This document shows, piece after piece, positions 2,355 to 21,840 of a DNA stretch of 32,000 nucleotides. The stretch is from Dubosiella newyorkensis. GTDB taxonomy: Bacteria; Bacillota_I; Bacilli_A; Erysipelotrichales; Erysipelotrichaceae. Under the pieces are notes generated by a model. It was given only the letters and a program-made list of their open reading frames with translations. It searched no databases and was not told the DNA's origin. The number at the start of each line of letters is the position of its first letter. The stretch's first letter is position 1. The stretch lies in assembly GCF_001945605.1 (NCBI RefSeq), contig NZ_MPKA01000064.1:6833-38832 (forward strand), given 5' to 3'. A program made the position numbers and the translations under genes.

Positions 2355-2401
2355 TGAAAAGCAAAATAAAAGATTCCCGAAAAGTCTACTTTAAGGGAAT
2401 C
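2355..2401 (-). terminator. rho-independent terminator of the recombinase gene
   Basis: GATTCCC (2372-2378) pairs with GGGAATC (2395-2401), with the stop codon in the loop. On the minus strand it is followed by TTTTATTTTGCTTTT. Confidence 0.45.
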
Positions 2402-2985
2402 CTTCTTTTTTTATACTTATAATAGGTGTTTTTGCTAATGCTAAAGTGTCGGCAAAGATCTTTAACAGTGACCTCGTGGGATTCACATTTTTTAACCCAC
2501 TCGTCAAATTCTTGAGGTAGTTCGAGCTCTGGTCTGCCAAATTTTACTCCACGTGCTTTTGCGGCAGCTATCCCCTCAGCTTGCCGTTTTTTTATTGCTT
2601 CTCTTTCCGTCTGGGCAACAAAAGAAAGAATCTGAAGGACAAGGTCAGCAATGAATGTGCCCATCAGATTCTTTTCGGTTCTTGTATCGAGTAACGGCAT
2701 ATCAACCACTACCATATCCACGCCATTTTCTTTAGTCAGGACCCGCCATTCCTTTTGGATCTCCTCATAGTTCCTGCCAAGCCTATCAATGCTATAGACA
2801 TAAACCACATCACCTGGCTTCAACTTTTTGATAAGTGCTTGATAGTTTGGGCGATTAAAGTCCTTTCCTGATTGTTTATCAATAAACAGATGGTCAGACT
2901 CAATCCCGAGTTCGCTCAGAGCATTAACTTGTCTTGCTTCGTTTTGATCCATGCTACTAACACGGATATAGCCATAAATTGCCAT
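2386..2985 (-). CDS. small serine recombinase (resolvase/invertase family) with C-terminal HTH
   Basis: MAIYGYIRVSSMDQNEARQ... has the catalytic Ser in the YxRVSS motif. Also RLGRN and a C-terminal HTH (VKDLCRHFSISKNTYYKY). Track ORF 2386..3117 trimmed to the ATG at 2985, which has the perfect SD AAAGAGGAGGAA. Confidence 0.85.
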   Translation of the reverse strand: MAIYGYIRVSSMDQNEARQVNALSELGIESDHLFIDKQSGKDFNRPNYQALIKKLKPGDVVYVYSIDRLGRNYEEIQKEWRVLTKENGVDMVVVDMPLLDTRTEKNLMGTFIADLVLQILSFVAQTEREAIKKRQAEGIAAAKARGVKFGRPELELPQEFDEWVKKCESHEVTVKDLCRHFSISKNTYYKYKKRRIPLK

Positions 2986-3160
2986 AAATTCCTCCTCTTT
3001 GGTTGTGATTGGTTTTAACTCATTCATCACAACTATTCGAGTAAGAATTCTGCTTTCTGTTAGATAGGAATCTGAGTGGATTTTCCTAAGAATAAGATCC
3101 TTCCAGAAAAGGGTCATGGCCGTATAATAGTCTGACAGATCTTTTGTTTTGGCTTGTTAG

Positions 3161-4019: not shown

Positions 4020-5162
4020 ATGGAAGATGAGCAAGTCGTCAAGATCCTTTTATGCTGTTCTTCCGGGTTCACGACTTCCTATTTTGCTCAACGCTTGAAT
4101 GAAGCCGCAAAGCAGCTAAGCCTAGACTATGAATTCGATGCCACTTCGTATTTTGATCTTTACTCAAGAGCGGAAGGATATGACATGATCTTGATCGCTC
4201 CGCAGATCGGTTACATGCTAAAGAAATTTAAAAAGGCGTTGCCAAAAAAACGGGTGTGTCAGATCCCGACTTCTTTGTTCGCCTCGTACAATACGGGGGC
4301 CACATTTTCCTTTATCCAAGAGCAGCTCAAGGAATATCGCCAACAAAGTCAAGAAAAGAACTCATTGTTCAGCGACTGCAGGCTAGATTGTCCTATGCAT
4401 CAAGAAACGGTGCTTGCGATCGCCGAATTGTATGATGGCAATTCGATCCAAGTCTATATCCATATTTATAAAAAGGGCGAAGTCCTTTTTGATGATGTCG
4501 TCATCAAACCAAACTTTCAAAAAGTCGTCTTGTTCGATTTGATCCAATACGCTCTTGGGCAAGTCGAGGGTGTCGATTTGATCGTGTTGGCCGTTCCTGG
4601 CATCATCAAAGAAGGGACGATCATCGATTTCCCGCAGCGAGGTCTTAAAAATTATCCGATGAAGAAGCGGATCGAAGAGCGATTCCATATCAAAACGACT
4701 TTGATCAACAACACCAACGCAATCGCGCTCGGTTTTGCCTACCTGCATCCGGAGCATGAGATCGTGACCTACCATTCGCAACCATATGGAAGAGCGATGG
4801 GCGGTCAAGGAACTGTCGTTCACCAAAATCTGATCAACGGCATAAGCGGGATCAGCGGCGAGATCAAATTCTTTTTGCCACGCATGCAGTTTTCAAATGA
4901 GCTCGCTCGTCTTGCTAAAACCGATTTTGGGACCCAGGAAATCGTGACCAACGCCTTGCTTCCGACGATTTCTTTGATCGGGCCCGATATTATCGTTTTA
5001 AGAGCGCCATTGATCAACGACTTAGAGGAATTGAAGAAGCGGATCGCCACCTTTATCCCATGTGACGCGATGCCTGAAATCGTCATGATCGAGGATATCA
5101 AGCCTTTTTTATTCCGCGGGATCGCCGAATACGCGTGCTCCTTTCTTCAAGAAACGGAATGA
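4020..5162 (+). CDS. fusion protein: PTS EIIB (lactose/cellobiose family) domain plus ROK-like ASKHA domain, with no HTH and no Zn motif
   Basis: N-terminal ~100 aa resemble ChbB/LicB: KILLCCSSGFTTS (phospho-Cys context) and MILIAPQIGYML (compare LLGPQIAYML). The C-terminal part is ROK-like: VLAVPGIIKEGTI, NNTNAIALGFAY, GGQGTVVHQNLINGISGISGEIKFF. The CxCGxxGC zinc motif is absent and the phosphate-1 DxGGT motif is degenerate (ELYDGNS). No obvious SD. Confidence 0.7.
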   Translation: MEDEQVVKILLCCSSGFTTSYFAQRLNEAAKQLSLDYEFDATSYFDLYSRAEGYDMILIAPQIGYMLKKFKKALPKKRVCQIPTSLFASYNTGATFSFIQEQLKEYRQQSQEKNSLFSDCRLDCPMHQETVLAIAELYDGNSIQVYIHIYKKGEVLFDDVVIKPNFQKVVLFDLIQYALGQVEGVDLIVLAVPGIIKEGTIIDFPQRGLKNYPMKKRIEERFHIKTTLINNTNAIALGFAYLHPEHEIVTYHSQPYGRAMGGQGTVVHQNLINGISGISGEIKFFLPRMQFSNELARLAKTDFGTQEIVTNALLPTISLIGPDIIVLRAPLINDLEELKKRIATFIPCDAMPEIVMIEDIKPFLFRGIAEYACSFLQETE

Positions 5163-6270: not shown

Positions 6271-6831
6271 CTAGTCATAAAGCACGCGATGCACGATTTC
6301 AAGAACGATTTTTGGATCATACTCGCCTCTCAAAGCTAAACTTTGCAGCATGGAAAAGAGCGTGTGCGCGAATGCTTTTGGGGTAAAAGAAGCATTGAAC
6401 GCGTCTTTTCGGATCTTGGGATCTTTCATAAGAACGCTTATTAGACTTTCCTCGATATGGTCCCAGATTTTGTGCATATGTTTCTGCCCTTCTTTTTGTT
6501 CATTTTTCTCAAAGTAGATCGCGTGTAGTCGAAAAAAGTCGGGATATAGAGTTTGCGATTCTTCAAGTCTTTGCATGACCCATTCGATCCAAGCGTCTAC
6601 GTCTTTAGGCGAGCTCTCCATATTTGAAGGATGGAAGATCTCTAGCCAGACGCTTTCGATCGTCTCTGAAATAAGGTCCGTTTTTGAATCGAAATAGTTG
6701 TAGATCGATCCAATCGAAACGTGGCAGGCTTGGGCGATCGCTCGGATGCTGATAGATCGATATCCTTTTGTTTGCAGGATAGAGCGGGATTGTTTTAAGA
6801 TTTCTTGCTTGGATGTGACAATCGTATTCAT
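6271..6831 (-). CDS. TetR/AcrR family transcriptional regulator
   Basis: HTH SIRAIAQACHVSIGSIYNYFDSKTDL. Track ORF trimmed to the ATG at 6831 (SD GGGAGGAAC). Confidence 0.85.
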   Translation of the reverse strand: MNTIVTSKQEILKQSRSILQTKGYRSISIRAIAQACHVSIGSIYNYFDSKTDLISETIESVWLEIFHPSNMESSPKDVDAWIEWVMQRLEESQTLYPDFFRLHAIYFEKNEQKEGQKHMHKIWDHIEESLISVLMKDPKIRKDAFNASFTPKAFAHTLFSMLQSLALRGEYDPKIVLEIVHRVLYD

Positions 6832-6845
6832 AGTTCCTCCCAAAG

Positions 6846-6858
6846 TGAACATTGTTCA
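6846..6858. promoter_or_regulatory. perfect 6-1-6 palindrome TGAACA-T-TGTTCA, candidate TetR operator
   Basis: Seen directly, 15 nt upstream of the tetR start in the divergent tetR/ABC intergenic region. Confidence 0.45.
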
Positions 6859-7160
6859 TTATAGACTCTTTTGTTTCTTTGTCAAACTGGACACAAAAGT
6901 GATTTCTCTTTATTCATTGAATGATTAAATTTTTATTCGTTGCTTATATTTTATATTATTGCTTATTTTAAATATATATTATAATATTAATTCAACCGTT
7001 ATTCACGGATCCCTATCACAGGATAGAAAGGAGGCCCCTATGAAACAAAACATCACAAACTGGTCGAATGTATTCATGGTGTCTCCTTCTTTTTTTTCGA
7101 TAAGAGCGTTTCTTCATGAATCCATTGGCCCCCCTATTGTAAATAGAAAGGTCAAAAGGA

Positions 7161-8774
7161 ATGAAAATCACAAACGAAATCAAAAATTTAACTTCTCATC
7201 TTCAATCTTTTTTTCATCTGCTCGTGCAGATGAAGCTTCAGAACACAACTGTAAAACTGCTTTTATGCGCACTGGCGACCGGCCTTTTCGAGATCCTTTT
7301 TTCTCTGGCATACGCCCGGGCCTTGGATCAAATTGCGCTTGAGGCGCTATGGCCCGTTATGCTCGTTTCCGGATTATGTCTTGCAAAGAGCGGAGCCATT
7401 CTCTTTCAAACAATACTGGACTGGCTGAGCCGCACAAACCGCAACGCCATGATCGCCAAACTGCGCCATGAAATGATGCATTCCATCCTGAATATGGACT
7501 ATGAATATTTTCTAACATTTTCCAAAGGAGAGCTCATCGACAAGATCCAGGCCTCCACCTTTGATCTGGCCGACAATCTTGGCATGTTCCTGCCCGATCT
7601 TTTCCGGCATGTCGTGATCGGAACGATCACGCTGGCTGCCGCCTTCTGCTTTGCGCCCGCACTTTCCTTCGTTTTTCTCGTCCTATGCATACTAATGTTA
7701 ATAACACAAATCTATGGCGGAAAATTTTGTGAAAAGCCGATGAACGAAATGATCGCTATGCGTAATAGGCGGGACTCCTGTATCCACGAACTGCTTTCCC
7801 ACACAAAAACGATCCAGATTTTTGATCTGGAATCTTTTGAAAAGAAACAGTTCCATCAGTCATCCGAACATTTTATCGCCTCTTTTTCCAAAGCCATGCA
7901 ACGTCTGGCGTCTGCGTTCAGTCCGGCGCGGATCTTTAATGACTGCGCGATCCTGTTTCCTTGCGTTCTGGCCGTCTTTGCGGTACGCGATCATACGCTG
8001 TCTCTTGAGCGGTTTTTCACTCTGCTGTTTCTTTGGAACATCTGCGCACAAGAATGGAAAGGACTCGACGCCATATTCGGCAATCTGCCCGGACTGCTTG
8101 CCAATTACCGCGATCTTGATCAAATCTGGAACATGCCAAAAGAAAGAACTATTTCATACCCTATTCCTGAAGATACAGTACTCCTTGAAATCAAAGATCT
8201 AGGATATGCCTATCATGACAAAACACCAGTCTTTGCCAATGAGTCCTTAAAGGTCAATTTTGAAGAAAAAATTGCTATTGCCGGAAAAAACGGGTGTGGA
8301 AAAACAACATTTCTGCGCTGTATTGCCGGCCTGTATACCCGCTATACCGGAGTAGTAGCCCGATCTCAATCTCTCAAAATCAGCTACGCCGGACAACGTC
8401 CGGGATGGTTCGAAGCTAGTTTTCGCGACAATCTCGATCCGTTACATATCCATTCCGACCAAGAGATCCACGCCTATCTCAAAGCATTCGATCTCGATTA
8501 TCTATGTGGTAGGATCGATCAGATCCCTGCCGATCTGTCGGGTGGCGAAAAACAGCGGCTAGCCATCATTCGATCTTTGCTCGAAGACCCGGATATTTTG
8601 CTTTTGGATGAGGCAACGAGCGCCGTAGACGCAAAAATTGCCCGCACCATTCATGAACAGCTAACATCTAGACCGCATCTTGCACTTCTTTCGATTGTGC
8701 ATGATCCTTCCGTGCTTGATTTGTATGACCAGGTCCTTGTTCTTGACTCAAAGGAAGGACAACACTATGAATAA
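7161..8774 (+). CDS. ABC exporter half-transporter (TMD-NBD), subunit 1 of a heterodimer
   Basis: Walker A GKNGCGKTT, signature LSGGEKQR, Walker B ILLLDEATSAVD, H-loop SIVHD. About 6 TM segments in the N-terminal half. Confidence 0.85.
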   Translation: MKITNEIKNLTSHLQSFFHLLVQMKLQNTTVKLLLCALATGLFEILFSLAYARALDQIALEALWPVMLVSGLCLAKSGAILFQTILDWLSRTNRNAMIAKLRHEMMHSILNMDYEYFLTFSKGELIDKIQASTFDLADNLGMFLPDLFRHVVIGTITLAAAFCFAPALSFVFLVLCILMLITQIYGGKFCEKPMNEMIAMRNRRDSCIHELLSHTKTIQIFDLESFEKKQFHQSSEHFIASFSKAMQRLASAFSPARIFNDCAILFPCVLAVFAVRDHTLSLERFFTLLFLWNICAQEWKGLDAIFGNLPGLLANYRDLDQIWNMPKERTISYPIPEDTVLLEIKDLGYAYHDKTPVFANESLKVNFEEKIAIAGKNGCGKTTFLRCIAGLYTRYTGVVARSQSLKISYAGQRPGWFEASFRDNLDPLHIHSDQEIHAYLKAFDLDYLCGRIDQIPADLSGGEKQRLAIIRSLLEDPDILLLDEATSAVDAKIARTIHEQLTSRPHLALLSIVHDPSVLDLYDQVLVLDSKEGQHYE

Positions 8775-10413
8775 GTCATGGCAAACAATCCGGCTTCTCA
8801 TCAAAGAAAGCCCGAAATATTGGCGCCTTTCCATCCTGGGCGCCATCCTTGCTTCCCTGCCCTGGTTTGTTTCGACATGGATTGTTTCGTGGTTTCTTGC
8901 AAAGGCTATTGACCAGGTGAATGATATGGCTTGGGATCCGGTCGGAGCATTCATCTTCGTCCTTTTTGTGATCATAATGTTGCGTGTACCGGTTATATAT
9001 GGATATCGTCTTAATTCATGGGCTGCCGAAAAGCTTTCTGCCCGCTTTCAATGGAAACTGCTTCGCTCATGGAATCGAAGAGATCCAGCTGATGTTTCGA
9101 TTTCTTTCAATGAAACATTGACCCGGATCCTGAACGATTGCGCGCAGTCCCTTTCCGAGTTTTTCTTTCAAGGCTTTGGCTTGAAAATACTAGAGCCAGT
9201 CCTGACTGGTGTGATTGCCTTGGTCGTTCTCTGGATGCTGCAATGGAAAATCGCTCTGCTTTCGATCGGACTTGGCGTCGTTTTATCGATCTTTACGATC
9301 AAGTTCACAAAAACGATCGAAGATCTGCATGCTGCACTTCAAACCAAAAACGACCAGTTGAACCAGATTTTTAATGATAATTTATCCAATATGGAAACGA
9401 TCAAAGCGATGGATCTAAGATCCCTAAAGCTCGATCAGTTCGATCGTTGCAGCTGTGAGATCCAAACCACAGCCAATCAGTTGGCAAAAATAGAGATTCT
9501 ATTAAAAACGCTCCCAAAGCTTGGCGAACTGATCCTGATCGTCTTCACGTTGCGCTTTTCGGTTCTTGATCCGGCTTTTCCGGTTGGCAATATCGTTCTA
9601 GTCGTAGCCATGCAAGTGTTTGTGAACAATTTGTTCTCCAACTTTGGAACGATGCGTAATGAGCTCGTCAAAACAGCCATTCATGCGCATAGGATCCTCG
9701 ATACGCTCGATGAGTTGCACAGCTCTGAGCGAAAAGAGAATAAAGCCATATCTTTTCCGGACCCTGTTACATTTTTTCAAATGGACCACATCGATTTTTC
9801 CTATGGAAACCAATCAATCTTACGAGATGTTTGTCTTGTTGCGAAGAAGGGAGAGCTGATGATATTAAAAGCGCTTTCAGGAAGTGGAAAATCGACTTTG
9901 CTTGATATTATCCAGGGATGGAGACAAGCAGAACACGGAACAATTTTGTGGAATGGCCAAAAACACATTCATTGCGGACTTTTTGAAACAAGAAAGAAGA
10001 TCCGGCTATTTGGGCAAGCCCCTGTGCTTTTTCAAGGAACCATTCGAGAAAACATTGAACTCGCCGCATCTAGACCTTTAAACGAAGAAGAACTGAAAAA
10101 GATAGCCGTATCGGTCAACTGGCAAAATTGCGAAATGGAAACCATGATCGAAGAGGGAGGTTCGAATTTATCGGGAGGCCAGCGACAGAAAATCACATTG
10201 ATGCAGGCGCTCGTGAGCGATGTGGACGTTTTGCTTCTCGATGAACCAACATCGGCTCTGGATCAAAAGAGCGAAGAAGTGGTATACGAAACTTTGAATC
10301 GACTCAAACAAGAAAAAATCCTTTTGATCGCGACGCATCGACCTTTGCTGATTCGCAAAGCGGACAGCATCTACTCTTGGCAAAACAAAAAATGGGTTCA
10401 TATCGACCCATAA
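8767..10413 (+). CDS. ABC exporter half-transporter (TMD-NBD), subunit 2
   Basis: Track ORF 8680..10413 trimmed to the ATG at 8767 (MNKSWQTIRLL), which overlaps the subunit-1 stop by 8 nt. ALSGSGKST, LSGGQRQK, VLLLDEPTSALD, ATHRP. Confidence 0.85.
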   Translation: MNKSWQTIRLLIKESPKYWRLSILGAILASLPWFVSTWIVSWFLAKAIDQVNDMAWDPVGAFIFVLFVIIMLRVPVIYGYRLNSWAAEKLSARFQWKLLRSWNRRDPADVSISFNETLTRILNDCAQSLSEFFFQGFGLKILEPVLTGVIALVVLWMLQWKIALLSIGLGVVLSIFTIKFTKTIEDLHAALQTKNDQLNQIFNDNLSNMETIKAMDLRSLKLDQFDRCSCEIQTTANQLAKIEILLKTLPKLGELILIVFTLRFSVLDPAFPVGNIVLVVAMQVFVNNLFSNFGTMRNELVKTAIHAHRILDTLDELHSSERKENKAISFPDPVTFFQMDHIDFSYGNQSILRDVCLVAKKGELMILKALSGSGKSTLLDIIQGWRQAEHGTILWNGQKHIHCGLFETRKKIRLFGQAPVLFQGTIRENIELAASRPLNEEELKKIAVSVNWQNCEMETMIEEGGSNLSGGQRQKITLMQALVSDVDVLLLDEPTSALDQKSEEVVYETLNRLKQEKILLIATHRPLLIRKADSIYSWQNKKWVHIDP

Positions 10414-10450
10414 GATAACTTAAAGCATTTTCATCAAAAAGAATCCATTT

Positions 10451-10514
10451 AAACGCTCCCCTTAAAACGGATAAGCGAAATTTCTAAATAGAAGTTTTGT
10501 AAGGGGAGCGTTTT
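10451..10514 (+). terminator. long inverted repeat (14-bp arms AAACGCTCCCCTTA / TAAGGGGAGCGTTT, 35-nt loop) downstream of the ABC operon
   Basis: Arms at 10451-10464 and 10500-10513, followed by T-rich sequence. The loop is unusually large for a simple terminator. Confidence 0.4.
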
Positions 10515-10723
10515 AGCATATTGTCGAGTTGTATAACGATCAAAATTTCTGTTTAAAAAAACAAATAAAATTTACTCGATTCCCATAGACTACGCCTTCC
10601 GCTTTTTAATTTGAACTTATCTCCAACATTTTAAGGTTAAATGACGGAAATAGTTTCTTAACAATCTGCAATTATTTTTAGGTATCCTGATAGAAAATAG
10701 GAAATTTTTCCGTAAATCGAACA

Positions 10724-10752
10724 CAAAAAAAGCTTCCCGTTTGCAGGAAGCT
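10724..10752 (-). terminator. rho-independent terminator of the murF-ddl/racemase/acyltransferase operon
   Basis: AGCTTCC (10731-10737) pairs with GGAAGCT (10746-10752). A7 at 10724-10730 gives a U-run on the minus strand. Lies 6 nt after the stop at 10758. Confidence 0.75.
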
Positions 10753-10757
10753 AAAGA

Positions 10758-11771
10758 TCAAATCAAATTATTCAAGATCGGATACTTTTCTTTTTCCCGT
10801 ACGATCAAGGAAGCAAGTCCTTGCGATAAAGCGATCGTCAAGAAATAGACGACAAGATTGGCGTTTGGAAAAAACATGAACAAGATCCGAACGAATAAGA
10901 TATGCGATGTATAGATAATCAAAGAATCGTAGCGCAAGATCTTGTACTGTTGACGATACGGGATCTTTACCGCCAGTAAATAATTGACTAAAAAGTACGT
11001 GGCCGGCACGAGCATCAAATACATACAGCTCAAATCATACATCATGCCGATCCGAGTATAGATCCAAACTTCCAAGATCAAAAGCGCGAAGCAGATCGAA
11101 AATGCGATCAAGCTCACCCTTGTTGGAAGCCTTCTTGTCTTCGCTAACAATAAACCGAGCGCCAAATACATCGGTCCAAAGAAAAACCCATCTCGCGCCG
11201 TGACTAGTGTTTTCGTAAAAAAGCCATATAAGATAGATACATAAGGCAGTTTTTCCCACAATGGCGCGTATACGTTGATCAAATATCCGATCAAGTAAAG
11301 AGCAAAGGCTACTTTGAGCGTAAAGGAAAGTCCTTTTCGCTTATAGATCTGATATACGATTGCCATCCCGATGATAAGAGCTGGCAAAAACCATAGATGA
11401 TAATAGCTTCCATTCAAGAAAAAATCACGAATATAGGCGAAGATCGAAATCAGTGAAAAGCCAGAACTCGCATAATTCCAAATCGTATAAGGAAGATAAA
11501 TCACCGTCCAGATCAAATAAAGCTTCAAGATCCGCCATTCATAGTGTTTAAAACGAAAGTCGTTTTCCTCTTCATCCTCGCTCCATTTCCGAAAAAAGAA
11601 ATAGCCCGATACGACAAAGAAAAATGGGACCGCCAGCCGGCAAACCGTCTGGATAAAATACGTATTGAACGTTTTAGAAATATCGACAAACGGATACACA
11701 TGGATACATACGACAAGCAGTGCAGAAATGTAGCGGGCGATATCGATCGCCCCAAATTGTTTTCCCCTCAT
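10758..11771 (-). CDS. acyltransferase-3 family integral membrane protein, resembling the N-terminal membrane domain of VanT
   Basis: About 10 TM segments. Motifs RLAVPFFFVVSGYFF, YHLWFLPALI, ARDGFFFGPMYLALG. SD AGGGGAA. Starts 13 nt after the racemase stop. Confidence 0.8.
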   Translation of the reverse strand: MRGKQFGAIDIARYISALLVVCIHVYPFVDISKTFNTYFIQTVCRLAVPFFFVVSGYFFFRKWSEDEEENDFRFKHYEWRILKLYLIWTVIYLPYTIWNYASSGFSLISIFAYIRDFFLNGSYYHLWFLPALIIGMAIVYQIYKRKGLSFTLKVAFALYLIGYLINVYAPLWEKLPYVSILYGFFTKTLVTARDGFFFGPMYLALGLLLAKTRRLPTRVSLIAFSICFALLILEVWIYTRIGMMYDLSCMYLMLVPATYFLVNYLLAVKIPYRQQYKILRYDSLIIYTSHILFVRILFMFFPNANLVVYFLTIALSQGLASLIVREKEKYPILNNLI

Positions 11772-11784
11772 AATTCCCCTAATT

Positions 11785-12933
11785 CTATTTCTTTGGCAGT
11801 CTAGGCAGCCTAGAGGCCAAGGATGTCAGCGTTTCATTGTTGATGGTGTTCATCATTCTAGAAATACGGTCGATCGTCACTCGATTTCCTTCTTGTTCGC
11901 CAACGATCACCGCTTCATCGCCCTCTTGCACGCCTTCGATCTCTGTCACATCCGCCATGCATTGATCCATACAAATGTTTCCGATCAATTTAGCCTTTTT
12001 CCCATGAAGCAGCACTTCTAGGCCTTGATTGGAGACAAGACGAGAAAGTCCATCCGCGTATCCGATCGAAAGTGTCGCGACCTTCGTTGGCTTTTGAGCG
12101 ACAAAATGCCGTCCATAGCTCACGCTTTCTCCGGCTTTGATCCACTTCACCAAACTCACATTGGCTTTTAAAGTCAAGATCGGCTTCAGACCAAGATGAT
12201 AGGCAGTGTCGATCGAATCATCGCTCGTCATACCGTTGAACAAAAGCCCAGGCCGGCAATAATCGAAACCAAGATCCCCATAATTCAAGATCCCATAACT
12301 ATTTTGAATGTGACGCAAACCAGGATCGATCCCTTCCTCTTTTAAATAAGAGATCGCTTCCTCAAACAATTCGATTTGATGTTTCGTGAAGCGTCGAGCG
12401 TCTTGTCCAAGGTCATCGCTGACAGGAAAGTGGGAAAAGATCCCCTCCACTCTTAAATACGGCAATTCATAGATCGTTTTGAGCGCTTCTATTTCTTTGT
12501 GCCCATCCTGAAAAGGAATCCCGATGCGATTCATTCCCGTATCCAATTTAAGATGCCCGCGAACGACAACATCCTTCGCTTTGGCAAAGTCATTGAGCTT
12601 CTTGGCGTACTCTTCCGAAAGGAACGACTGCACAAGGTCGTATTCAACAAGTTTTGAAAAGTGTTCTGGCGGAGTATAGCCTAGAATCAAAATATTTTCT
12701 TGGATCCCGCCTTCTCTCAGCTCGATGGCCTCATCGACACTCGAAACCCCAAAATAATCGATCCCAAGATCTCTTAATGTTTTTGCGATCGGCAAAGCGC
12801 CAAGACCATAGGCGTTGGCTTTGACGATCCCCATGACCTTGGTCTTGTTCATGAGCTTTTGGATCTCTTTCAAGTTGTGCTCGATCGTATCATAATCGAT
12901 CTCGCACCAAGCGCGTGAATACGCTTCTAGCAT
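11785..12933 (-). CDS. alr: PLP-dependent alanine/serine racemase (Alr fold; VanT catalytic-domain-like)
   Basis: PLP-Lys motif VKANAYGLG; SYGRHF; GNICMDQCMADV. Near the C-terminus it has TINNE where Alr has TINYE. The start ATG overlaps the upstream stop (ATGCTAG). Confidence 0.85.
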   Translation of the reverse strand: MLEAYSRAWCEIDYDTIEHNLKEIQKLMNKTKVMGIVKANAYGLGALPIAKTLRDLGIDYFGVSSVDEAIELREGGIQENILILGYTPPEHFSKLVEYDLVQSFLSEEYAKKLNDFAKAKDVVVRGHLKLDTGMNRIGIPFQDGHKEIEALKTIYELPYLRVEGIFSHFPVSDDLGQDARRFTKHQIELFEEAISYLKEEGIDPGLRHIQNSYGILNYGDLGFDYCRPGLLFNGMTSDDSIDTAYHLGLKPILTLKANVSLVKWIKAGESVSYGRHFVAQKPTKVATLSIGYADGLSRLVSNQGLEVLLHGKKAKLIGNICMDQCMADVTEIEGVQEGDEAVIVGEQEGNRVTIDRISRMMNTINNETLTSLASRLPRLPKK

Positions 12934-15344
12934 GCACTGACCTCTTTTTCCATCGCAAGATCGATCAAAAGATCGATCAATTCAGTAAAGGAGATCCCTG
13001 CAGCTTGCATCATACTTGGATAACGGGAAGTCGCTGTGAAGCCAGGAAGCGTATTGATCTCGTTAAGAACGATCTCGTTTTCTTCGGTCACGAACATATC
13101 GACACGCGCCATCCCCGTGCATCCCATGATTCGGAACGCTTTTTTCGCCAATGCTTGCGCGTTGGCGAATGTTTGTCCATCAATACGAGCTGGACAATAA
13201 ATATTAGCGCCTTTCATCGCGTACTTGCCTTCAAAATCAAAGATGGCGCTTTGGATCTCGATCTCGTCGACACTACCGACCTGGATCTGATCATTTCCTA
13301 AAACGGCGCAGCCGATCTCGAAGCCATTGATCGCTTCTTCGATCAAGATCTTTCCTCTTCCATCCCATTTGAACGCGTCTTTTTTCGCTTCTTCAAATTG
13401 GCTCTTTTCTTCGACAAAATGAACACCATAGCTGCTTCCCGCGTTGCATGGCTTGATGACCCACGGGAGCGGAAGCTGTTCTTGGATCTCTTCAAAGCTT
13501 GGCTGCTCTTCCCATGCCTTCAAACAAATATATCGGGCGCAAGGAATGTGCGCTTGATCGCATAAAATATGCATAATCTCTTTATCCATGCACATCGCCG
13601 AGGCGAGAATATCGCTTCCTACATAATGAATATTCATCATTTGCGCCAATCCTTGGAAGGCGCCATCTTCTCCATTTTTTCCATGGAGCACCGGGAATAT
13701 CACATCGAGAGGAATAAAAATCTCATTGTCCTTGTCATAGACGCCTTTATGCATCCAAGAACAAGAATGAATATACTCTTCTTTTTTCCACGTATCGCTT
13801 TCGATTGCTTCGATCGGACCCGTATAAATAAAGAATTGTCCGCCTTCATCGATTCCAATGCACGTTATATCGTATTTTGAGCGGTCGATCTGGTGTAGAA
13901 AACTGCCTGTCGAATGCAGCGAAACCGAATACTCACTGCTTTGTCCTCCAAAAACGACCCCCAATTTCAATTTTGCCATACTTCCTCCTGCTGTTAATTG
14001 TTTTACGATCGTATCCATCGCCATTGCACGGCTTCCTTTGATCAAGATCACACAATCCTCTTGAAGCAAAGGAAGCAAAGCTTGTACGATTTCTTCTTTC
14101 GTTTGAAAAGATGCTCCATTCTCGCCAAACGCCTTCGCGCTTTCTACGCTCAATGGACCATATGTATAAAGCTGGTCGACACCATGCTCTTTAGCGTACT
14201 TGCCAATCGAAGCGTGGAGTTCTCTTTCTTCATTTCCTAGATCCAGCATATCACCTAAGATGGCGATATGCTTTTGAGCCGGAAGGGCAAGGAGCGTATC
14301 GATCGCCGCCTTGGCGCTTTCCGGATTCGATTTATATGAATCGTCGAGAACGCGGGCATGTTGAAGCGTGAGCAGTTGTGTCCGCATCTTCGTCATTTCT
14401 AAGTTTTTAAGTCCTTGTAAGATCGTCGCATCCTCGATACCATCGTATTTGGCAGCAAGAATGACCGGCAATGCGTTCATCGCTTGATGGGCGCCCAAAG
14501 CATGCAGCTCGATCAAATCCTGGATGCCATTGGTTTTAAAGAAGATCGAATCTTTTCCATAATCGATCGAGGAAACGATCGAAAGCGTGCCTCCTTGGCC
14601 AAAGGATCGGATCGTTTTGCTCGGATCGAGTTTTTTCTCTTGCAGTACTTCTTCGATTTCCGGCGATTCTTTATTGTAGATCAATACGCCACCTTCCTTG
14701 AGTCCATCATAGATCTCCAGCTTCGCTTCGGCGATCTGCTTTTTTCCGCCTAGATTTTCCATATGGGCGGAACCGATCGTCGTAATGATCGCGATATCCG
14801 GGGGCGCGATCTTTGTCAAATAGGTGATCTCGCCTTTGTTTTCCATTCCCATTTCAAGGATCGCGACTTGCAGATCGGCATCAAAGTCTAAGATCGTCAA
14901 AGGAAGTCCGATCTCGTTGTTTCGATTACCTGGTGTCGCCGCGCTCTTCTTTACAAGAGAATAGACACTTTTCACCATATCTTTACAGCTCGTCTTGCCA
15001 TTGGACCCCGTGATCGCGATCACTTCGGCATCTAAAGAAGCTAAATACGCTTGCGCGAGCTGGCCTAGCGCTTCGATCGTATCTTCCACCAAGATCAAAG
15101 GGATCCCTTCTGGATAAGGGGTATGATCTTTTTGCCAAAAAGCAAGAGCGGCTTGTCCGTTTTTAACTTGTTCAATAAATGAATGCCCGTCATTGTGAGC
15201 GCCTACGATCGGAACGTATACATTGCCTTTTTGCACATTTCTCGAATCGATCGTTACGCCTTTTACGATTGTGTCTGGATCGTATGGTCCGCAAACTTCA
15301 CTTTGCATGTAGGTCGCGATTTCCGCGATGGTCTTTTGAATCAT
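12927..15344 (-). CDS. murF-ddl: bifunctional fusion: MurF (UDP-MurNAc-tripeptide--D-alanyl-D-X ligase, aa 1-455) plus Van-type D-Ala--D-X ligase (aa 456-805)
   Basis: MurF part: ITGSNGKTS P-loop, DDSYKSNPESA, ILGDMLDLG. Ddl part: KLGVVFGGQSSEYSVSL, HGKNGEDGAFQG, GFEIGCAVLGN, NTLPGFTATSRYP. It is one uninterrupted 805-codon ORF in the track. Confidence 0.85.
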   Translation of the reverse strand: MIQKTIAEIATYMQSEVCGPYDPDTIVKGVTIDSRNVQKGNVYVPIVGAHNDGHSFIEQVKNGQAALAFWQKDHTPYPEGIPLILVEDTIEALGQLAQAYLASLDAEVIAITGSNGKTSCKDMVKSVYSLVKKSAATPGNRNNEIGLPLTILDFDADLQVAILEMGMENKGEITYLTKIAPPDIAIITTIGSAHMENLGGKKQIAEAKLEIYDGLKEGGVLIYNKESPEIEEVLQEKKLDPSKTIRSFGQGGTLSIVSSIDYGKDSIFFKTNGIQDLIELHALGAHQAMNALPVILAAKYDGIEDATILQGLKNLEMTKMRTQLLTLQHARVLDDSYKSNPESAKAAIDTLLALPAQKHIAILGDMLDLGNEERELHASIGKYAKEHGVDQLYTYGPLSVESAKAFGENGASFQTKEEIVQALLPLLQEDCVILIKGSRAMAMDTIVKQLTAGGSMAKLKLGVVFGGQSSEYSVSLHSTGSFLHQIDRSKYDITCIGIDEGGQFFIYTGPIEAIESDTWKKEEYIHSCSWMHKGVYDKDNEIFIPLDVIFPVLHGKNGEDGAFQGLAQMMNIHYVGSDILASAMCMDKEIMHILCDQAHIPCARYICLKAWEEQPSFEEIQEQLPLPWVIKPCNAGSSYGVHFVEEKSQFEEAKKDAFKWDGRGKILIEEAINGFEIGCAVLGNDQIQVGSVDEIEIQSAIFDFEGKYAMKGANIYCPARIDGQTFANAQALAKKAFRIMGCTGMARVDMFVTEENEIVLNEINTLPGFTATSRYPSMMQAAGISFTELIDLLIDLAMEKEVSAC

Positions 15345-15367: not shown

Positions 15368-15376
15368 ATTATAGCA
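15368..15376 (-). promoter_or_regulatory. extended -10 element (TGCTATAAT) of the murF-ddl operon promoter
   Basis: Minus strand reads ...GCTGTGCTATAATGTTTTCCAAATGGAGGCTCAAAAATG. The -10 lies ~24 nt upstream of the start and the SD GGAGG sits in between. Confidence 0.5.
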
Positions 15377-15516
15377 CAGCTTCTCACAAATAGAGAGGAA
15401 GCCGAAAAAAAACACATATCCCTCTTGAAAACGGTTTCATTTGTGTTTTGTGACCGATAAATAGCTTTTTTTTGAACAATTTGGAGGAAAAACGTAAAAA
15501 ATAGAAGCAATTCCCC

Positions 15517-15528: not shown

Positions 15529-15681
15529 ATTTTGGTCATTTTCACATATTTTTACAAATTTATCCCATATATTACGATTCAGCTTATGCTATACTGTTAA
15601 ACAAGCAAGGAACAGAAGGCCTTGCCGGTATGAAATCGTGAATAGATATTCATACTATTTTCTATCCCCTTAATTTTATGG

Positions 15682-15711
15682 AAAGCCAGGCCTCCCCTTA
15701 GCCTGGCTTTT
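15682..15711 (+). terminator. stem-loop AAAGCCAGGC-N9-GCCTGGCTTT plus a short T-run, upstream of the HIT gene
   Basis: 10-bp GC-rich stem seen directly. Preceded ~90 nt upstream by an extended -10 (TGCTATACT, 15587-15595). The T-run is only 4 nt. Confidence 0.4.
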
Positions 15712-15743
15712 CATATGCGTTGGGGGTCAAGGAGGGAGAAAAA

Positions 15744-16223: not shown

Positions 16224-16775
16224 ATGAAAAAAAACGCGATCATATTATTAGCCGACGGATTTGAAGAAATCGAAGCCATCACACCATATGATCTGCTCAA
16301 TGAAGCAGGCGTTGAAACAAAACTCATTTCTGTTTCCGACGAAACGAATGTGACAGGAACTAACGGCCTGAAAGTCATTGCGGATGGACTGCTTAAAGAA
16401 ATCGATACCAAAAAAGCCGATTGCTTGATCATTCCAGGAGGCGCTGGCTATCAGATCTTAAAAAAAGAGCAGAGCGTTCTCGATTTGATCCAATCTTTTG
16501 CCAAGCAACCCGATAAAGTCCTAGGAGCGATTTGCGCAGGCAGTTCGATTTTAGGCGAGCTCGGCATTTACCAAGGAAAAAACTATACTTGCGTTCCTGG
16601 CTTGAATGGCGATTTTGGCGGTCACTATGAAAAAGTTCACGCCGTGATCGATGGAAATCTAGTCACAGGAATTTCAGTCGGCGGCGCGATGGAATTTGCC
16701 TACGATCTTGTCGAAGTCCTCTGTTCTAAAGAAAAGAAAGAGGCGCTTGAGCGTCAAACGTGCACGATCGTTTAA
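16224..16775 (+). CDS. DJ-1/PfpI (ThiJ) family protein
   Basis: Nucleophile-elbow Cys in LGAICAGSSILG, with LIIPGGAG upstream. SD AAGAGGAGG. Confidence 0.8.
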   Translation: MKKNAIILLADGFEEIEAITPYDLLNEAGVETKLISVSDETNVTGTNGLKVIADGLLKEIDTKKADCLIIPGGAGYQILKKEQSVLDLIQSFAKQPDKVLGAICAGSSILGELGIYQGKNYTCVPGLNGDFGGHYEKVHAVIDGNLVTGISVGGAMEFAYDLVEVLCSKEKKEALERQTCTIV

Positions 16776-16796: not shown

Positions 16797-16836
16797 AAAA
16801 AAAGCCATGGATCATCCTAAGTTCCATGACTTTTTT
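16797..16836 (+). terminator. hairpin (GCCATGGA / TCCATGAC) plus T6; terminator for the DJ-1 gene, overlapping the 3' end of the convergent rloB-like gene
   Basis: Seen directly. One mismatch in an 8-bp stem. Flanked by an A-run and a T-run, so possibly bidirectional. Confidence 0.5.
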
Positions 16837-17453
16837 AGAATCGGGGCCCGCATTTCTTCTGGCAAATAGCAAGCCAATTCCAGCACAAGCTCAAATACAT
16901 ACGTGCAAGGCCTTGCTTGGGAAGGCCTTTTCTTTTGTTGTTGGAGGGCGAGCTTTTTCGCGCTTTGTACAGCAAGATGCGGATCGCCGATCTTCAATAC
17001 GATCTCGAAAAGATCCTGTTCCTGTTTTTTGTACGTTAAAAACCCGTGTTTGCGAAAGATCTTTTTTAATAGCCGAATATATTCATCCCGATGAAACAAA
17101 GTTTGATAATAAGAAAAATGCAGCAAGATCCACAACTCGAAGCATTCGTTGCTCCAGGCGCATCGATACGTGTTGCCGCCTTTTCGTTTTTGATCGAGTT
17201 CTTTAACTTTTTGGATCGTTTCATCAAAATTCTTGGCCACAAAATCATCCCGATCGAACACGAGCCAAATATGACTTTGCTTGATCTCATTTTTTCGAAT
17301 ATAGTTTTGCGCGAGCTCCAAGATCCTCAGCGTTTCTTTTCCTAGTCCAAAGCAGTTGATCTTCACTTGTTCTGGATCGGCATATCGAACAAATCCTTCA
17401 AAATAATTGGGCTCCGTCTTTTTCCCTTCGCAAAAAATATAATACGTTTCCAT
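16812..17453 (-). CDS. RloB-like protein (TOPRIM/OLD-type nuclease-like domain)
   Basis: N-terminal YYIFCEGKKTEPNYFEGF, WLVFDRDDF, WSNECFELWILLHF: the characteristic RloB-family strings. Confidence 0.75.
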   Translation of the reverse strand: METYYIFCEGKKTEPNYFEGFVRYADPEQVKINCFGLGKETLRILELAQNYIRKNEIKQSHIWLVFDRDDFVAKNFDETIQKVKELDQKRKGGNTYRCAWSNECFELWILLHFSYYQTLFHRDEYIRLLKKIFRKHGFLTYKKQEQDLFEIVLKIGDPHLAVQSAKKLALQQQKKRPSQARPCTYVFELVLELACYLPEEMRAPILKKSWNLG

Positions 17454-21087: not shown

Positions 21088-21840
21088 TCACTTTCTTTTT
21101 CCAAGCAAAAGAGCGAACGAATCGTATTGATGCCCGATGCTCAGATCGATCTCGATCGGCTTTGGACAATAACGCTTCGCGATCTGAAGAAGCGTGTTTT
21201 CATTGTTGTAGTGCAAGAATTCGCTGAAATTCCCTAAAATCAGCCGATCGATCTGCTCAAAAACGCCCATTTCAGCCAATTGCGCAAAATAGCTTTCGAT
21301 CCTTTCCTGCTTGCCTGAATAGCTTTCTAAAAAAAGATGACCTCCATGCACGTCTGGAAAATAAGGCGTTCCTGCCAACTTTAAAAAGCAGCGCACATTT
21401 CCTCCTACCAGACGATCAGAATATTTGATCAGATCCTCGTTTTTATGAAATAAAAAATCGAGCAGCTCTTTGCTTTTTCCATGATTGCAAATCTGATAGA
21501 GAATCGTTTCTTTATAAGGAAGCAGCGCGTTGAGAACGCAAGTCACATCGCTATATCCCATAAAGATCGTGCGCGAATTTTTATAAGCGGCAAGATCCAA
21601 ATACGGAAGTGTCGTATTCGCAAGATCTCCGCCCGATACATCGCAAATATAATCGAATGTATCTTCTTTGATCCAAGCGTTGAATACATCTGCCTTTTCT
21701 TTAGGAGAAGCGAGCGGATCGTACAAGTGTTTGGAGACGCTGACTTGGATCGAGTGGCGCTGAAGAAAATCGATCGTTTCCGTGATCGGGTACGAGAGAG
21801 CGTTGGATAAATTCAATAAACCAATTTTTAGAGTTTTCAT
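21088..21840 (-). CDS. LD-carboxypeptidase-like protein (peptidase S66), short form
   Basis: GYSDVT nucleophile-Ser motif and C-terminal SIGHQ histidine context. 250 aa, against roughly 300 aa typical. Confidence 0.6.
   Translation of the reverse strand: MKTLKIGLLNLSNALSYPITETIDFLQRHSIQVSVSKHLYDPLASPKEKADVFNAWIKEDTFDYICDVSGGDLANTTLPYLDLAAYKNSRTIFMGYSDVTCVLNALLPYKETILYQICNHGKSKELLDFLFHKNEDLIKYSDRLVGGNVRCFLKLAGTPYFPDVHGGHLFLESYSGKQERIESYFAQLAEMGVFEQIDRLILGNFSEFLHYNNENTLLQIAKRYCPKPIEIDLSIGHQYDSFALLLGKRK

Follow-up and report, generated by a model that had tools for sequence, protein, structure and literature searches.

A VanG/VanT-like cell wall precursor operon with a MurF–ligase fusion in Dubosiella newyorkensis and its counterparts in the Erysipelotrichaceae

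Layout and expression of the operon

A 32,000-nucleotide stretch of the genome of Dubosiella newyorkensis, a bacterium of the mouse gut (contig NZ_MPKA01000064.1, positions 6,833 to 38,832; hereafter the window) carries, on its minus strand, three consecutive genes whose products resemble MurF and the VanG- and VanT-type proteins of glycopeptide resistance. The first codes for a single polypeptide in which MurF is joined to a ligase of the D-Ala:D-X type, the second for a VanT-type racemase and the third for an acyltransferase-3 family protein that stands alone and crosses the membrane several times (Table 1). The stop codon of the fusion overlaps the start codon of the racemase gene in the sequence ATGCTAG at 12927-12933, and a 13-nt spacer, AATTAGGGGAATT (11772-11784), lies between the racemase and the membrane protein genes. 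This overlap couples the translation of the racemase to that of the fusion, and the three open reading frames (ORFs) are tightly coupled. An earlier note, made from the letters of the window alone, had described these three ORFs, the overlap and the spacer, as well as several motif strings and the codons for Phe702, Arg774 and Asn366; on re-examination all of them were found where it had placed them. The NCBI names for the three D. newyorkensis proteins, obtained through exact matches, are only MurF, alanine racemase and acyltransferase. The G+C (GC) content of the operon equals that of its surroundings.

Table 1. Features of the operon, with positions in the window
Feature	Position	Strand	Remarks
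MurF::ligase fusion ORF	12927-15344	-	805 aa
VanT-type racemase, cytoplasmic catalytic unit	11785-12933	-	382 aa; Ser and Ala are the predicted substrates
Stand-alone multi-pass acyltransferase-3 membrane protein	10758-11771	-	337 aa; homologous to the N-terminal domain of VanT
MurF domain of the fusion (UDP-MurNAc-tripeptide:D-alanyl-D-X dipeptide ligase)	13992-15344	-	aa 1-451
Fusion junction GCAGGAGGAAGTATG	13977-13991	-	linker A-G-G-S and Met456
Ligase domain of the fusion, VanG-like D-Ala:D-X ligase	12927-13979	-	aa 456-805 and stop; predicted product D-Ala-D-Ser
Candidate extended -10 promoter TGTGCTATAAT	15368-15378	-	about 24 nt upstream of the murF ATG
Terminator-like hairpin AGCTTCCTGCAAACGGGAAGCT followed by T-run TTTTTTGTGT	10731-10752	-	6 nt past the stop codon of the membrane protein gene
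Key codons of the ligase	D693 13266-13268; F702 (TTT) 13239-13241; Y708 13221-13223; R774 (CGT) 13023-13025	-	
Key residues of the racemase	Y213, S237, N365, N366 (AAT 11836-11838)	-	

A generic promoter scan gave no convincing minus-strand promoter for the operon, and the candidate extended -10 element emerged only from a comparative alignment of the 375 nt upstream of murF. In this alignment TGTGCTATAAT was unchanged in D. newyorkensis, D. muris, M10-2 and OPF54, whereas the flanking intergenic DNA was variable; the element was probably overlooked by the generic scan for want of a -35. The leader that follows is short, about 17 nt, and bears the Shine-Dalgarno (SD) sequence GGAGG. Transcription of the operon probably starts at this conserved element and ends at the hairpin just past the membrane protein gene. 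Expression is probably constitutive, which fits the absence of an adjacent regulator, the position of the extended -10 directly upstream of murF and the short leader. Pfam annotation of the ORFs of at least 130 aa turned up neither a two-component system nor an M15/VanY peptidase in the window, as the earlier note had maintained for VanXY and two-component regulators. Moreover, a search for ORFs with a VanX/VanY zinc motif, covering 790 kb from the window and 62 related loci, gave none. Control of the operon by a riboswitch or by its leader was also considered, and rejected: a search of the window against Rfam at the gathering threshold returned no element, and the conserved block in the intergenic region belongs to the opposite strand and has a promoter and a terminator of its own.

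The ligase domain resembles VanG

The C-terminal part of the fusion is covered in Pfam by Dala_Dala_lig_N (aa 460-577) and Dala_Dala_lig_C (aa 595-794), and the ATP-grasp fold of a D-Ala-D-X ligase is complete, with both domains (AlphaFold2 predicted local distance difference test, pLDDT, about 90). VanG was the top NCBIfam ligase model for this domain, with 392.7 bits, followed by the generic Ddl subfamily (356.8), the D-Ala-D-Ser equivalog (345.4), VanL (296) and the VanC and D-Ala-D-Lac models (about 282). The best-matching chain of the Protein Data Bank (PDB) was likewise VanG, 4FU0, with a whole-sequence score of 311.9 bits, as compared to 273.4 for DdlA.

In pairwise as well as in multiple alignments, D693, F702 and R774 aligned with Asp243, Phe252 and Arg324 of VanG (4FU0), and F702, Y708 and R774 with Tyr210, Tyr216 and Leu282 of E. 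coli DdlB; both correspondences had been put forward in the earlier note and neither shifted. At the three VanG-determinant positions housekeeping enzymes have Ile, Tyr210 and Leu282 (E. coli DdlB) or Gly, Tyr and Met (Salmonella DdlA). The DdlB and VanA sequences used here were checked against 1IOV and 1E4E, respectively. According to reported mutagenesis of VanC2 and VanG, the determinant positions control the use of D-Ser. However, VanA, a D-Lac ligase, has Asp, Phe and Arg at the same three positions, and the triad therefore separates Van-type from Ddl enzymes, not Ser-type from Lac-type ones. Of the suggestion that Asp, Phe and Arg are determinants of D-Ser use, the part that sets the ligase apart from Ddl stood and the part that sets it apart from D-Lac ligases did not. 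The omega loop of the ligase, IFDFEGKYAMKGANIYCPAR, is equal in length to that of VanG, FFDYTEKYTLKSSKIYMPAR; it retains Gly-Lys-Tyr (IFDFEGKYAMKG) and has neither the VanA-type RIHQ insertion, IFRIHQEVEPEKGSEN, nor the His. It is this VanG-like omega loop that points to the use of Ser and not of Lac. Two further strings of the domain, GFEIGCAVLGN and NTLPGFTATSRYP, begin at aa 674 and aa 764 of the fusion.

The nearest stand-alone ligases listed in a search of 1.84 billion representatives divide cleanly into groups with VanG-like, DdlA-like and VanA-like signatures. The VanG-like signature reads VDEIE..FFD[YF]..KY..SR[YF]P and the DdlA-like one GE..FYD..KY..ISMYP, and the window ligase belongs to the VanG-like group. 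A rough neighbour-joining tree, thinly sampled and without bootstrap, placed the window ligase with those of [Clostridium] innocuum and other Erysipelotrichaceae, then with Erysipelothrix-like fusions, and then with VanA and VanG; DdlA, DdlB and a canonical Ddl of the Filifactoraceae fell outside the Van side. In this tree the ligase thus lies away from DdlA and DdlB. The combination of Asp, Phe, Tyr and Arg at the positions of D693, F702, Y708 and R774 (D/F/Y/R) was found in all 41 fusions and in 158 of 163 aligned ligases; this set includes VanG, DdlB and the window sequence as well as the 41 fusions.

The racemase and the membrane protein match the two parts of VanT

The racemase consists of Ala_racemase_N and Ala_racemase_C in Pfam, and its PLP-lysine motif, KANAYG, begins at aa 38. 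Its best model was vanT-G-Cterm (429.5 bits, as compared to 346.5 for alr), and the top PDB chain was that of VanTG, 4ECL. Enzymes of the VanT class have Tyr543-Ser567-Thr695-Asn696 (VanTG numbering) at four positions at which Alr has Ala-Pro-His/Asn-Tyr (PMC4542195). The window racemase, with Y213-S237-N365-N366, agrees with VanT at three of the four, the decisive Asn included, whereas the Alr of C. difficile reads A-P-N-Y. That Asn366 is a hallmark of VanT, as had been proposed, is borne out by the Tyr213/Ser237/Asn366 signature, to be compared with Ala/Pro/Tyr in Alr. The substitution N696Y lowers the conversion of L-Ser by VanTG 30-fold and, conversely, Y354N raises serine racemisation by the Geobacillus Alr 62-fold (PMC4542195). 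A T695S form of VanTG has kinetics like those of the wild type, and Asn, the residue found here, is outside the variants reported for position 695; VanTG itself is 4-fold more efficient with L-Ala than with L-Ser (PMC4542195). The signature Asn was present in 49 of 49 cluster-linked racemases.

Pfam Acyl_transf_3 covers aa 8-323 of the membrane protein. The same protein matched positions 4-328 of the vanT-CELN profile (E 2.9e-41) and the vanT-L-mem model (E 9e-29), and no further NCBIfam family at E ≤ 0.001; the VanT N-domain models score 141.7 bits, against 87.7 for the generic Pfam family. Both RLAVPFFFVVSGYFF and YHLWFLPALI, which had been read as motifs of the VanT membrane domain, lie within it, and the extent of the vanT-CELN match upholds its earlier assignment to the VanT N-terminal domain. 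In contrast to VanT, in which membrane domain and racemase are fused in one polypeptide, the membrane part is here a separate downstream gene. More than 40 loci, spread over many genera and with C. innocuum and an Erysipelothrix-like metagenome-assembled genome (MAG) among them, have the acyltransferase gene directly 3' of the racemase gene. The VanT membrane domain has been credited with the transport of L-Ser, offsetting the modest efficiency of the racemase with this substrate, although this is an attribution and not a demonstrated function (PMC4542195).

The operon belongs to a locus conserved in the Erysipelotrichaceae

A genome scan recovered 36 related loci, and in the 30 that extended far enough the genes for MurF, the VanG-like ligase, the racemase and the membrane protein had the same order and orientation. 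These loci came from Dubosiella, Allobaculum, Holdemanella, Faecalitalea, Faecalicoccus, Absicoccus, Floccifex and unnamed relatives, and a search with the membrane protein gene added Ileibacterium, Faecalibaculum and Catenisphaera. The genera also have in common the order of the genes upstream, namely LD-carboxypeptidase, a hypothetical gene, RecG, a second hypothetical gene and HIT, the latter divergent from murF. The identity of the Ddl sequences to the window ligase follows taxonomy, with 73-74% in Dubosiella, about 64-65% in Holdemanella and Faecalicoccus, 54-58% in Allobaculum and 50% in C. innocuum. The shared flanking synteny and the identities that track taxonomy indicate that this is a vertically inherited, core murF-ddl-alr locus of the Erysipelotrichaceae, which on these comparisons serves native wall chemistry and is not an acquired cassette. 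Since the locus is a conserved part of the core, the split VanT and the missing VanRS and VanXY are traits of the family. The architecture of the locus had been regarded as new; the MurF::ligase fusion is, but the module itself, the split VanT and the absence of VanRS and VanXY are all conserved across the Erysipelotrichaceae. A VanT-like racemase followed by a separate gene for the VanT N-domain, as found throughout the family, may be under-described.

The MurF::ligase fusion

The N-terminal part of the fusion is a complete MurF: Mur_ligase, Mur_ligase_M and Mur_ligase_C span aa 27-439, and the TIGR01143 murF model was matched over its full profile (1-418) with 394.8 bits, above its cutoff of 288.6 (AlphaFold2 pLDDT for this domain >90). 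Of 34 related loci, 30 keep murF and ddl as two genes, either overlapping or directly adjoining. The murF of D. muris, M10-2 and OPF54 ends in ...GGxKNV-TAA, with the TAA overlapping the ATG of ddl. The D. newyorkensis spacer (GCAGGA-GGAAGTATG) is 1 nt shorter than in these three, which brings murF into the frame of ddl and so creates the fusion. The ancestral SD of ddl (AGGAGG) and its ATG (Met456) are kept within the fused ORF, and free ligase may therefore still be made. The same 805-aa product was found in many independent D. newyorkensis assemblies (NCBI, ENA, Logan) and is thus not an assembly error. Two records of a 350-aa Ddl (P0289 and P0291) raised the possibility of an unfused D. 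newyorkensis allele, which was rejected: the contigs start 23-55 nt upstream of the Met456 ATG, both of those in which the upstream sequence was read (L052 and L053) have the fusion junction, and the short proteins are artefacts of gene calling at contig ends.

Fusions have also arisen elsewhere. In Allobaculum mucilyticum, A. fili and one MAG the two genes were joined independently, through loss of a stop codon that two other Allobaculum still keep, and one Erysipelothrix-like MAG has the complete arrangement of fusion, racemase and acyltransferase genes. Distant fusions with 35-42% identity in the ligase domain also have D/F/Y/R. Among the best 150 matches of an exhaustive search of the 1.84 billion representatives, about five were full-length MurF::Ddl proteins; P0436 (778 aa), P0437 (805 aa) and P0446 (830 aa) are distant MurF::Ddl fusions, 29-38% identical to that of the window. 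We considered whether the fusion is exclusive to Ser-type ligases, but P0436 and P0437 have the canonical FY..KY and ISMYP signatures, and the fusion is therefore not tied to Ser specificity. Our literature search found no description of a MurF-Ddl fusion.

The fusion had been suggested to channel D-Ala-D-Ser straight into the pentapeptide. In an AlphaFold2 model built on an alignment of 30 fusions, across which the catalytic motifs are conserved, both halves were confident (mean pLDDT 91), whereas the linker (aa 454-456) was below 50 and the predicted template modelling score (pTM) was 0.59. A rigid channelling architecture was rejected on this model, which predicts a disordered linker and no fixed interface. 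With a flexible linker predicted, and with the internal SD and ATG kept, channelling is unsupported. The D. newyorkensis fusion is recent and specific to this species, and is most likely a tolerated or neutral result of the tight gene overlap. Thus, the only real architectural novelty of the locus is the recurrent but rare MurF::ligase fusion, which is probably tolerated rather than adaptive. The repeated appearance of MurF::Ddl fusions through trivial mutations at overlapping junctions offers a natural experiment on whether there is any kinetic gain from linking the two steps.

Two distant lineages (L058 and L060) present a variation of the locus. In both, the racemase encoded after a MurF::Ddl fusion with D/F/Y/R has retained the Asn, but embedded in IPNE rather than INNE. 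The racemase gene of L058 and L060 has no acyltransferase-3 gene after it; close by, the opposite strand carries Sua5 and SHMT, either fused or as two genes. As SHMT interconverts serine and glycine, this neighbourhood may be linked to the supply of serine.

Proposed pathway and alternatives

We consider it probable that this is a chromosomal, vertically inherited precursor operon, most likely expressed constitutively, whose products would make precursors that end in D-Ala-D-Ser. In the proposed pathway, the acyltransferase-3 membrane protein would supply L-Ser, the role that the literature attributes to the corresponding domain of VanT, and the VanT-like racemase would convert it to D-Ser, besides yielding D-Ala. 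The VanG-like ligase domain would then couple D-Ala with D-Ser, with some D-Ala-D-Ala as a by-product, and the MurF domain would attach the dipeptide to UDP-MurNAc-tripeptide. The predicted phenotype is a low-level tolerance of vancomycin of the VanC or VanG kind; high-level resistance would not be expected.

Several observations weigh against this proposal. The ligase is under the curated cutoffs of the relevant models (VanG, 392.7 bits vs 495; D_ala_D_ser, 345.4 vs 520), and the racemase is under every VanT cutoff (vanT-G-Cterm, 429.5 vs 460; vanT-CELN, 349 vs 900; vanT-L-cat, 271 vs 750). The scores of ligase and racemase do suffice for the generic Ddl and alr models, hence the NCBI naming. 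Moreover, oral vancomycin depletes Dubosiella in two mouse studies. The depletion excludes high-level resistance, and any resistance would thus be low-level; even this can be squared with the depletion only because the drug reaches very high concentrations in the gut lumen.

All of these observations would be accommodated if the locus were an ordinary D-Ala-D-Ala housekeeping locus as annotated, with MurF, Ddl, Alr and an unrelated O-acyltransferase, and with Van-like residues that are product-neutral quirks of the lineage. The names given by NCBI (MurF, D-Ala-D-Ala ligase family, alanine racemase, acyltransferase) are those of such a locus, as is its place as the core murF-ddl-alr locus. Nevertheless, we regard this explanation as improbable. 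The three VanG determinants, the omega loop and three of the four VanT positions, the Asn included, are not only present but conserved in the clade, and a homologue of the VanT N-domain is invariably linked to the racemase. Furthermore, C. innocuum, the precursors of which are reported to be Ser-terminated (David and co-workers, 2004), has the same signatures and likewise scores under the cutoffs.

A conditional or dual pathway is, in our view, distinctly improbable. Here, the ligase would make mostly D-Ala-D-Ala in vivo and use D-Ser only at times of plentiful serine, and the membrane protein would be a co-located O-acyltransferase of the wall or of polysaccharides, functionally unconnected to the racemase. 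The preference of VanTG for L-Ala would agree with this, as would the breadth of Acyl_transf_3 as an O-acyltransferase family (some orthologues are called 'O-acetylase OafA/YrhL' by JGI) and the lack of the membrane gene in some distant fused loci. On the other hand, the membrane protein prefers the VanT N-domain models over the generic Pfam family, and its gene keeps its place directly 3' of that of the racemase from Dubosiella to C. innocuum and the Erysipelothrix-like MAG. Finally, a horizontally acquired van cassette stripped of its regulators and D,D-peptidase, which VanG and VanTG as the closest characterised homologues and a resolvase gene in lower-GC DNA about 8 kb off might suggest, is essentially refuted by synteny, as the LdcA, RecG and HIT flanks are the same across genera, identities follow taxonomy, the GC content is that of the surroundings and the locus includes the murF of the organism.

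A bolder version of the proposed D-Ala-D-Ser pathway, in which the fused enzyme is the only Ddl and MurF of the cell and passes D-Ala-D-Ser directly to the MurF active site in D. newyorkensis, some Allobaculum and Erysipelothrix-like lineages, the family as a whole being natively Ser-terminated, seems doubtful to us. Such a direct hand-over would allow precursors to end in Ser without VanXY to clear D-Ala-D-Ala. If true, the fused protein would be the first example in nature of a bifunctional enzyme with altered specificity that synthesises the dipeptide and also adds it, and Dubosiella, Allobaculum, Holdemanella, Faecalibaculum, Faecalicoccus and other gut commensals would natively build Ser-terminated precursors.

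As it stands, the default precursor locus of much of the Erysipelotrichaceae seems to be a D-Ala-D-Ser pathway of the VanG/VanT kind, which would not be a peculiarity of C. innocuum. In our literature search, no paper tied Dubosiella, Allobaculum, Holdemanella or Faecalibaculum to vanG/vanT or to D-Ala-D-Ser. Many members of the family are intensively studied commensals of the mouse and human gut. Vancomycin is used routinely in such work, and the expected low-level tolerance would therefore affect how such experiments are read. Since the genes score just under the cutoffs of the antimicrobial resistance (AMR) models, resistome surveys would miss them or mislabel them as vanG/vanT. It is plausible that the unfused order, racemase and then membrane gene, is the ancestral state of VanT, and a racemase with a separate membrane gene provides a system for probing the role of the VanT membrane domain.

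Neighbouring genes and a candidate small RNA

The conserved intergenic block between the MurF::ligase gene and HIT contains a candidate gene for a small RNA (sRNA) of about 110 nt (15585-15712, plus strand). Its parts are, in order, an extended -10 (TGCTATACT), two hairpins, an invariant single-stranded segment (ATTTTCTATCCCCTTAA) and a terminator hairpin with a C-rich loop (CCTCCCCTTA), and it contains two CCCC motifs. It occupies the same position in at least 27 Erysipelotrichaceae loci, with 77-90% nucleotide identity and compensatory changes in 6 of the 26 predicted base pairs. The sole Rfam match was weak, to RsaE/RoxS (RF01820; 20.9 bits vs a gathering threshold of 79, E 0.36), and the element may be an RsaE/RoxS-like sRNA for which Rfam does not yet have coverage in the Erysipelotrichaceae.

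Further upstream, a DJ-1/PfpI gene (16224-16775, plus strand) and an RloB-like gene matched by PADLOC to AbiLii (16812-17453, minus strand) lie between HIT and the hypothetical gene next to recG; in relatives with both of the latter on the fetched stretch (e.g. L005, L007 and L012), these adjoin each other. No ATPase partner of the AbiLi type was found beside the AbiLii-like gene. The LD-carboxypeptidase gene (Peptidase_S66, LdcA-like; 21088-21840, minus strand) is syntenic with recG in the Dubosiella-clade loci L005 and L007 and in the Allobaculum loci L001, L002, L004, L031 and L035. The substrates of an LdcA-like enzyme are peptidoglycan tetrapeptides; it has no D,D-peptidase function and is therefore no substitute for VanXY.

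On the other side, the operon terminator is separated from a TetR gene (6271-6852) by a segment of about 3.9 kb (6853-10757), which codes for a pair of ABC half-transporters, each with ABC_membrane and ABC_tran domains (7161-8774 and 8680-10413, plus strand). The segment is absent from the D. newyorkensis-like L054 and L055, in which TetR comes directly after the acyltransferase gene, and is thus a strain-level indel. A 380-aa ORF (4020-5162, plus strand) combines PTS_IIB (aa 8-85) with a partial match to the ROK family (aa 173-282), an unusual pairing. The first 4000 nt of the window have a GC content of 0.38, as compared to about 0.45 elsewhere, and carry a Resolvase-type serine recombinase gene (2386-3117, minus strand). 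A mobile element may have its edge in this region; the distance to the operon is about 8 kb, and relatives show no linkage between the two.

Comparison with known systems

The closest counterpart is the orthologous ddl-racemase locus of C. innocuum, which was recovered by scanning metagenome contigs with the primer for ddl from the C. innocuum multilocus sequence typing scheme (PMC11409672); the scan gave 15 contigs, including L039, of which the ligase and racemase exactly match [Clostridium] innocuum records and the MurF was named via members of its 90%-identity cluster. As in the window, murF, a VanG-like ddl, a VanT-like racemase gene and an acyltransferase-3 gene follow each other in the same order and orientation (15 contigs), and the D/F/Y/R of the ligase and the Y-S-N-N and TINNE of the racemase are shared. 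The analogy drawn in the earlier note thus proved stronger than it had claimed. The C. innocuum proteins also served as a control for the model scores: its Ddl scores 457 bits, with VanG first, and its racemase 443, with vanT-G-Cterm first, both just under the cutoff, whereas VanG itself, at 578, passes. Failure to reach the AMR cutoffs is therefore no argument against a D-Ser function. The recovered loci of the C. innocuum type have no VanX/VanY-type zinc motif, in a screen that did not cover VanRS. Unlike in the window, murF (462 aa) and ddl (355 aa) are separate, and the flank differs in having a MerR-like ORF upstream (as judged by its N-terminal sequence only). Identities between the two loci are 39% for MurF, 50% for Ddl, 55% for the racemase and 42.5% for the membrane protein. 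C. innocuum was reportedly found by David and co-workers in 2004 to be constitutive, with about 93% of its pentapeptide precursor pool ending in Ser and a minimum inhibitory concentration of vancomycin of about 8 ug/ml; that study is said to have described only ddl and the racemase gene (2,465 bp), and not murF or the membrane gene.

Among acquired systems, the vanG operon of E. faecalis BM4518 is the source of the best-matching solved structures and NCBIfam models. The likeness extends to Asp243, Phe252 and Arg324 of VanG and the length of its omega loop, and to Tyr543, Ser567 and Asn696 of VanTG, all of which have their equals at the corresponding positions in the window, although the window ligase is only about 45% identical to VanG. 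VanTG is a single polypeptide with the membrane domain at its N-terminus, whereas the window has two genes with the racemase first. In addition, vanG is inducible (VanURS), has VanXY and VanW, and is acquired; the window locus is without these, belongs to the core and includes murF. In vanL, as in the window, VanT is split over two genes, one for the membrane part (vanTmL) and one for the catalytic part (vanTrL; PMC4542195). However, vanL carries VanRS and VanXY, both of which are missing here, and the window proteins are far under the vanL-specific cutoffs (270.8 vs 750, and 100.9 vs 675). The gene order in vanL, according to Boyd and colleagues in 2008, is reportedly Tm and then Tr, whereas in the window the catalytic part precedes the membrane part. 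VanC of E. gallinarum and E. casseliflavus is likewise species-intrinsic and chromosomal, and confers low-level resistance through D-Ala-D-Ser, although the VanC model gives the window ligase only about 282 bits, against 393 for VanG. These species need VanXYc and VanRS because they keep a separate housekeeping Ddl.

The fusion itself is best compared with the natural chimeras of Mur ligases (MurE-MurF, MurC-Ddl and others), in which two cytoplasmic enzymes are likewise united in one polypeptide from adjacent, overlapping genes; MurF-Ddl is not among the types in the 2023 survey of such chimeras (Shirakawa et al., 2023; PMC10214165). The MurE-MurF of Bordetella has a fixed interface, whereas none is predicted for the window fusion (pTM 0.59, linker pLDDT <50). 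Unlike MurC-Ddl, the fusion of the window, with MurF at the N-terminus and Ddl at the C-terminus, joins consecutive steps.

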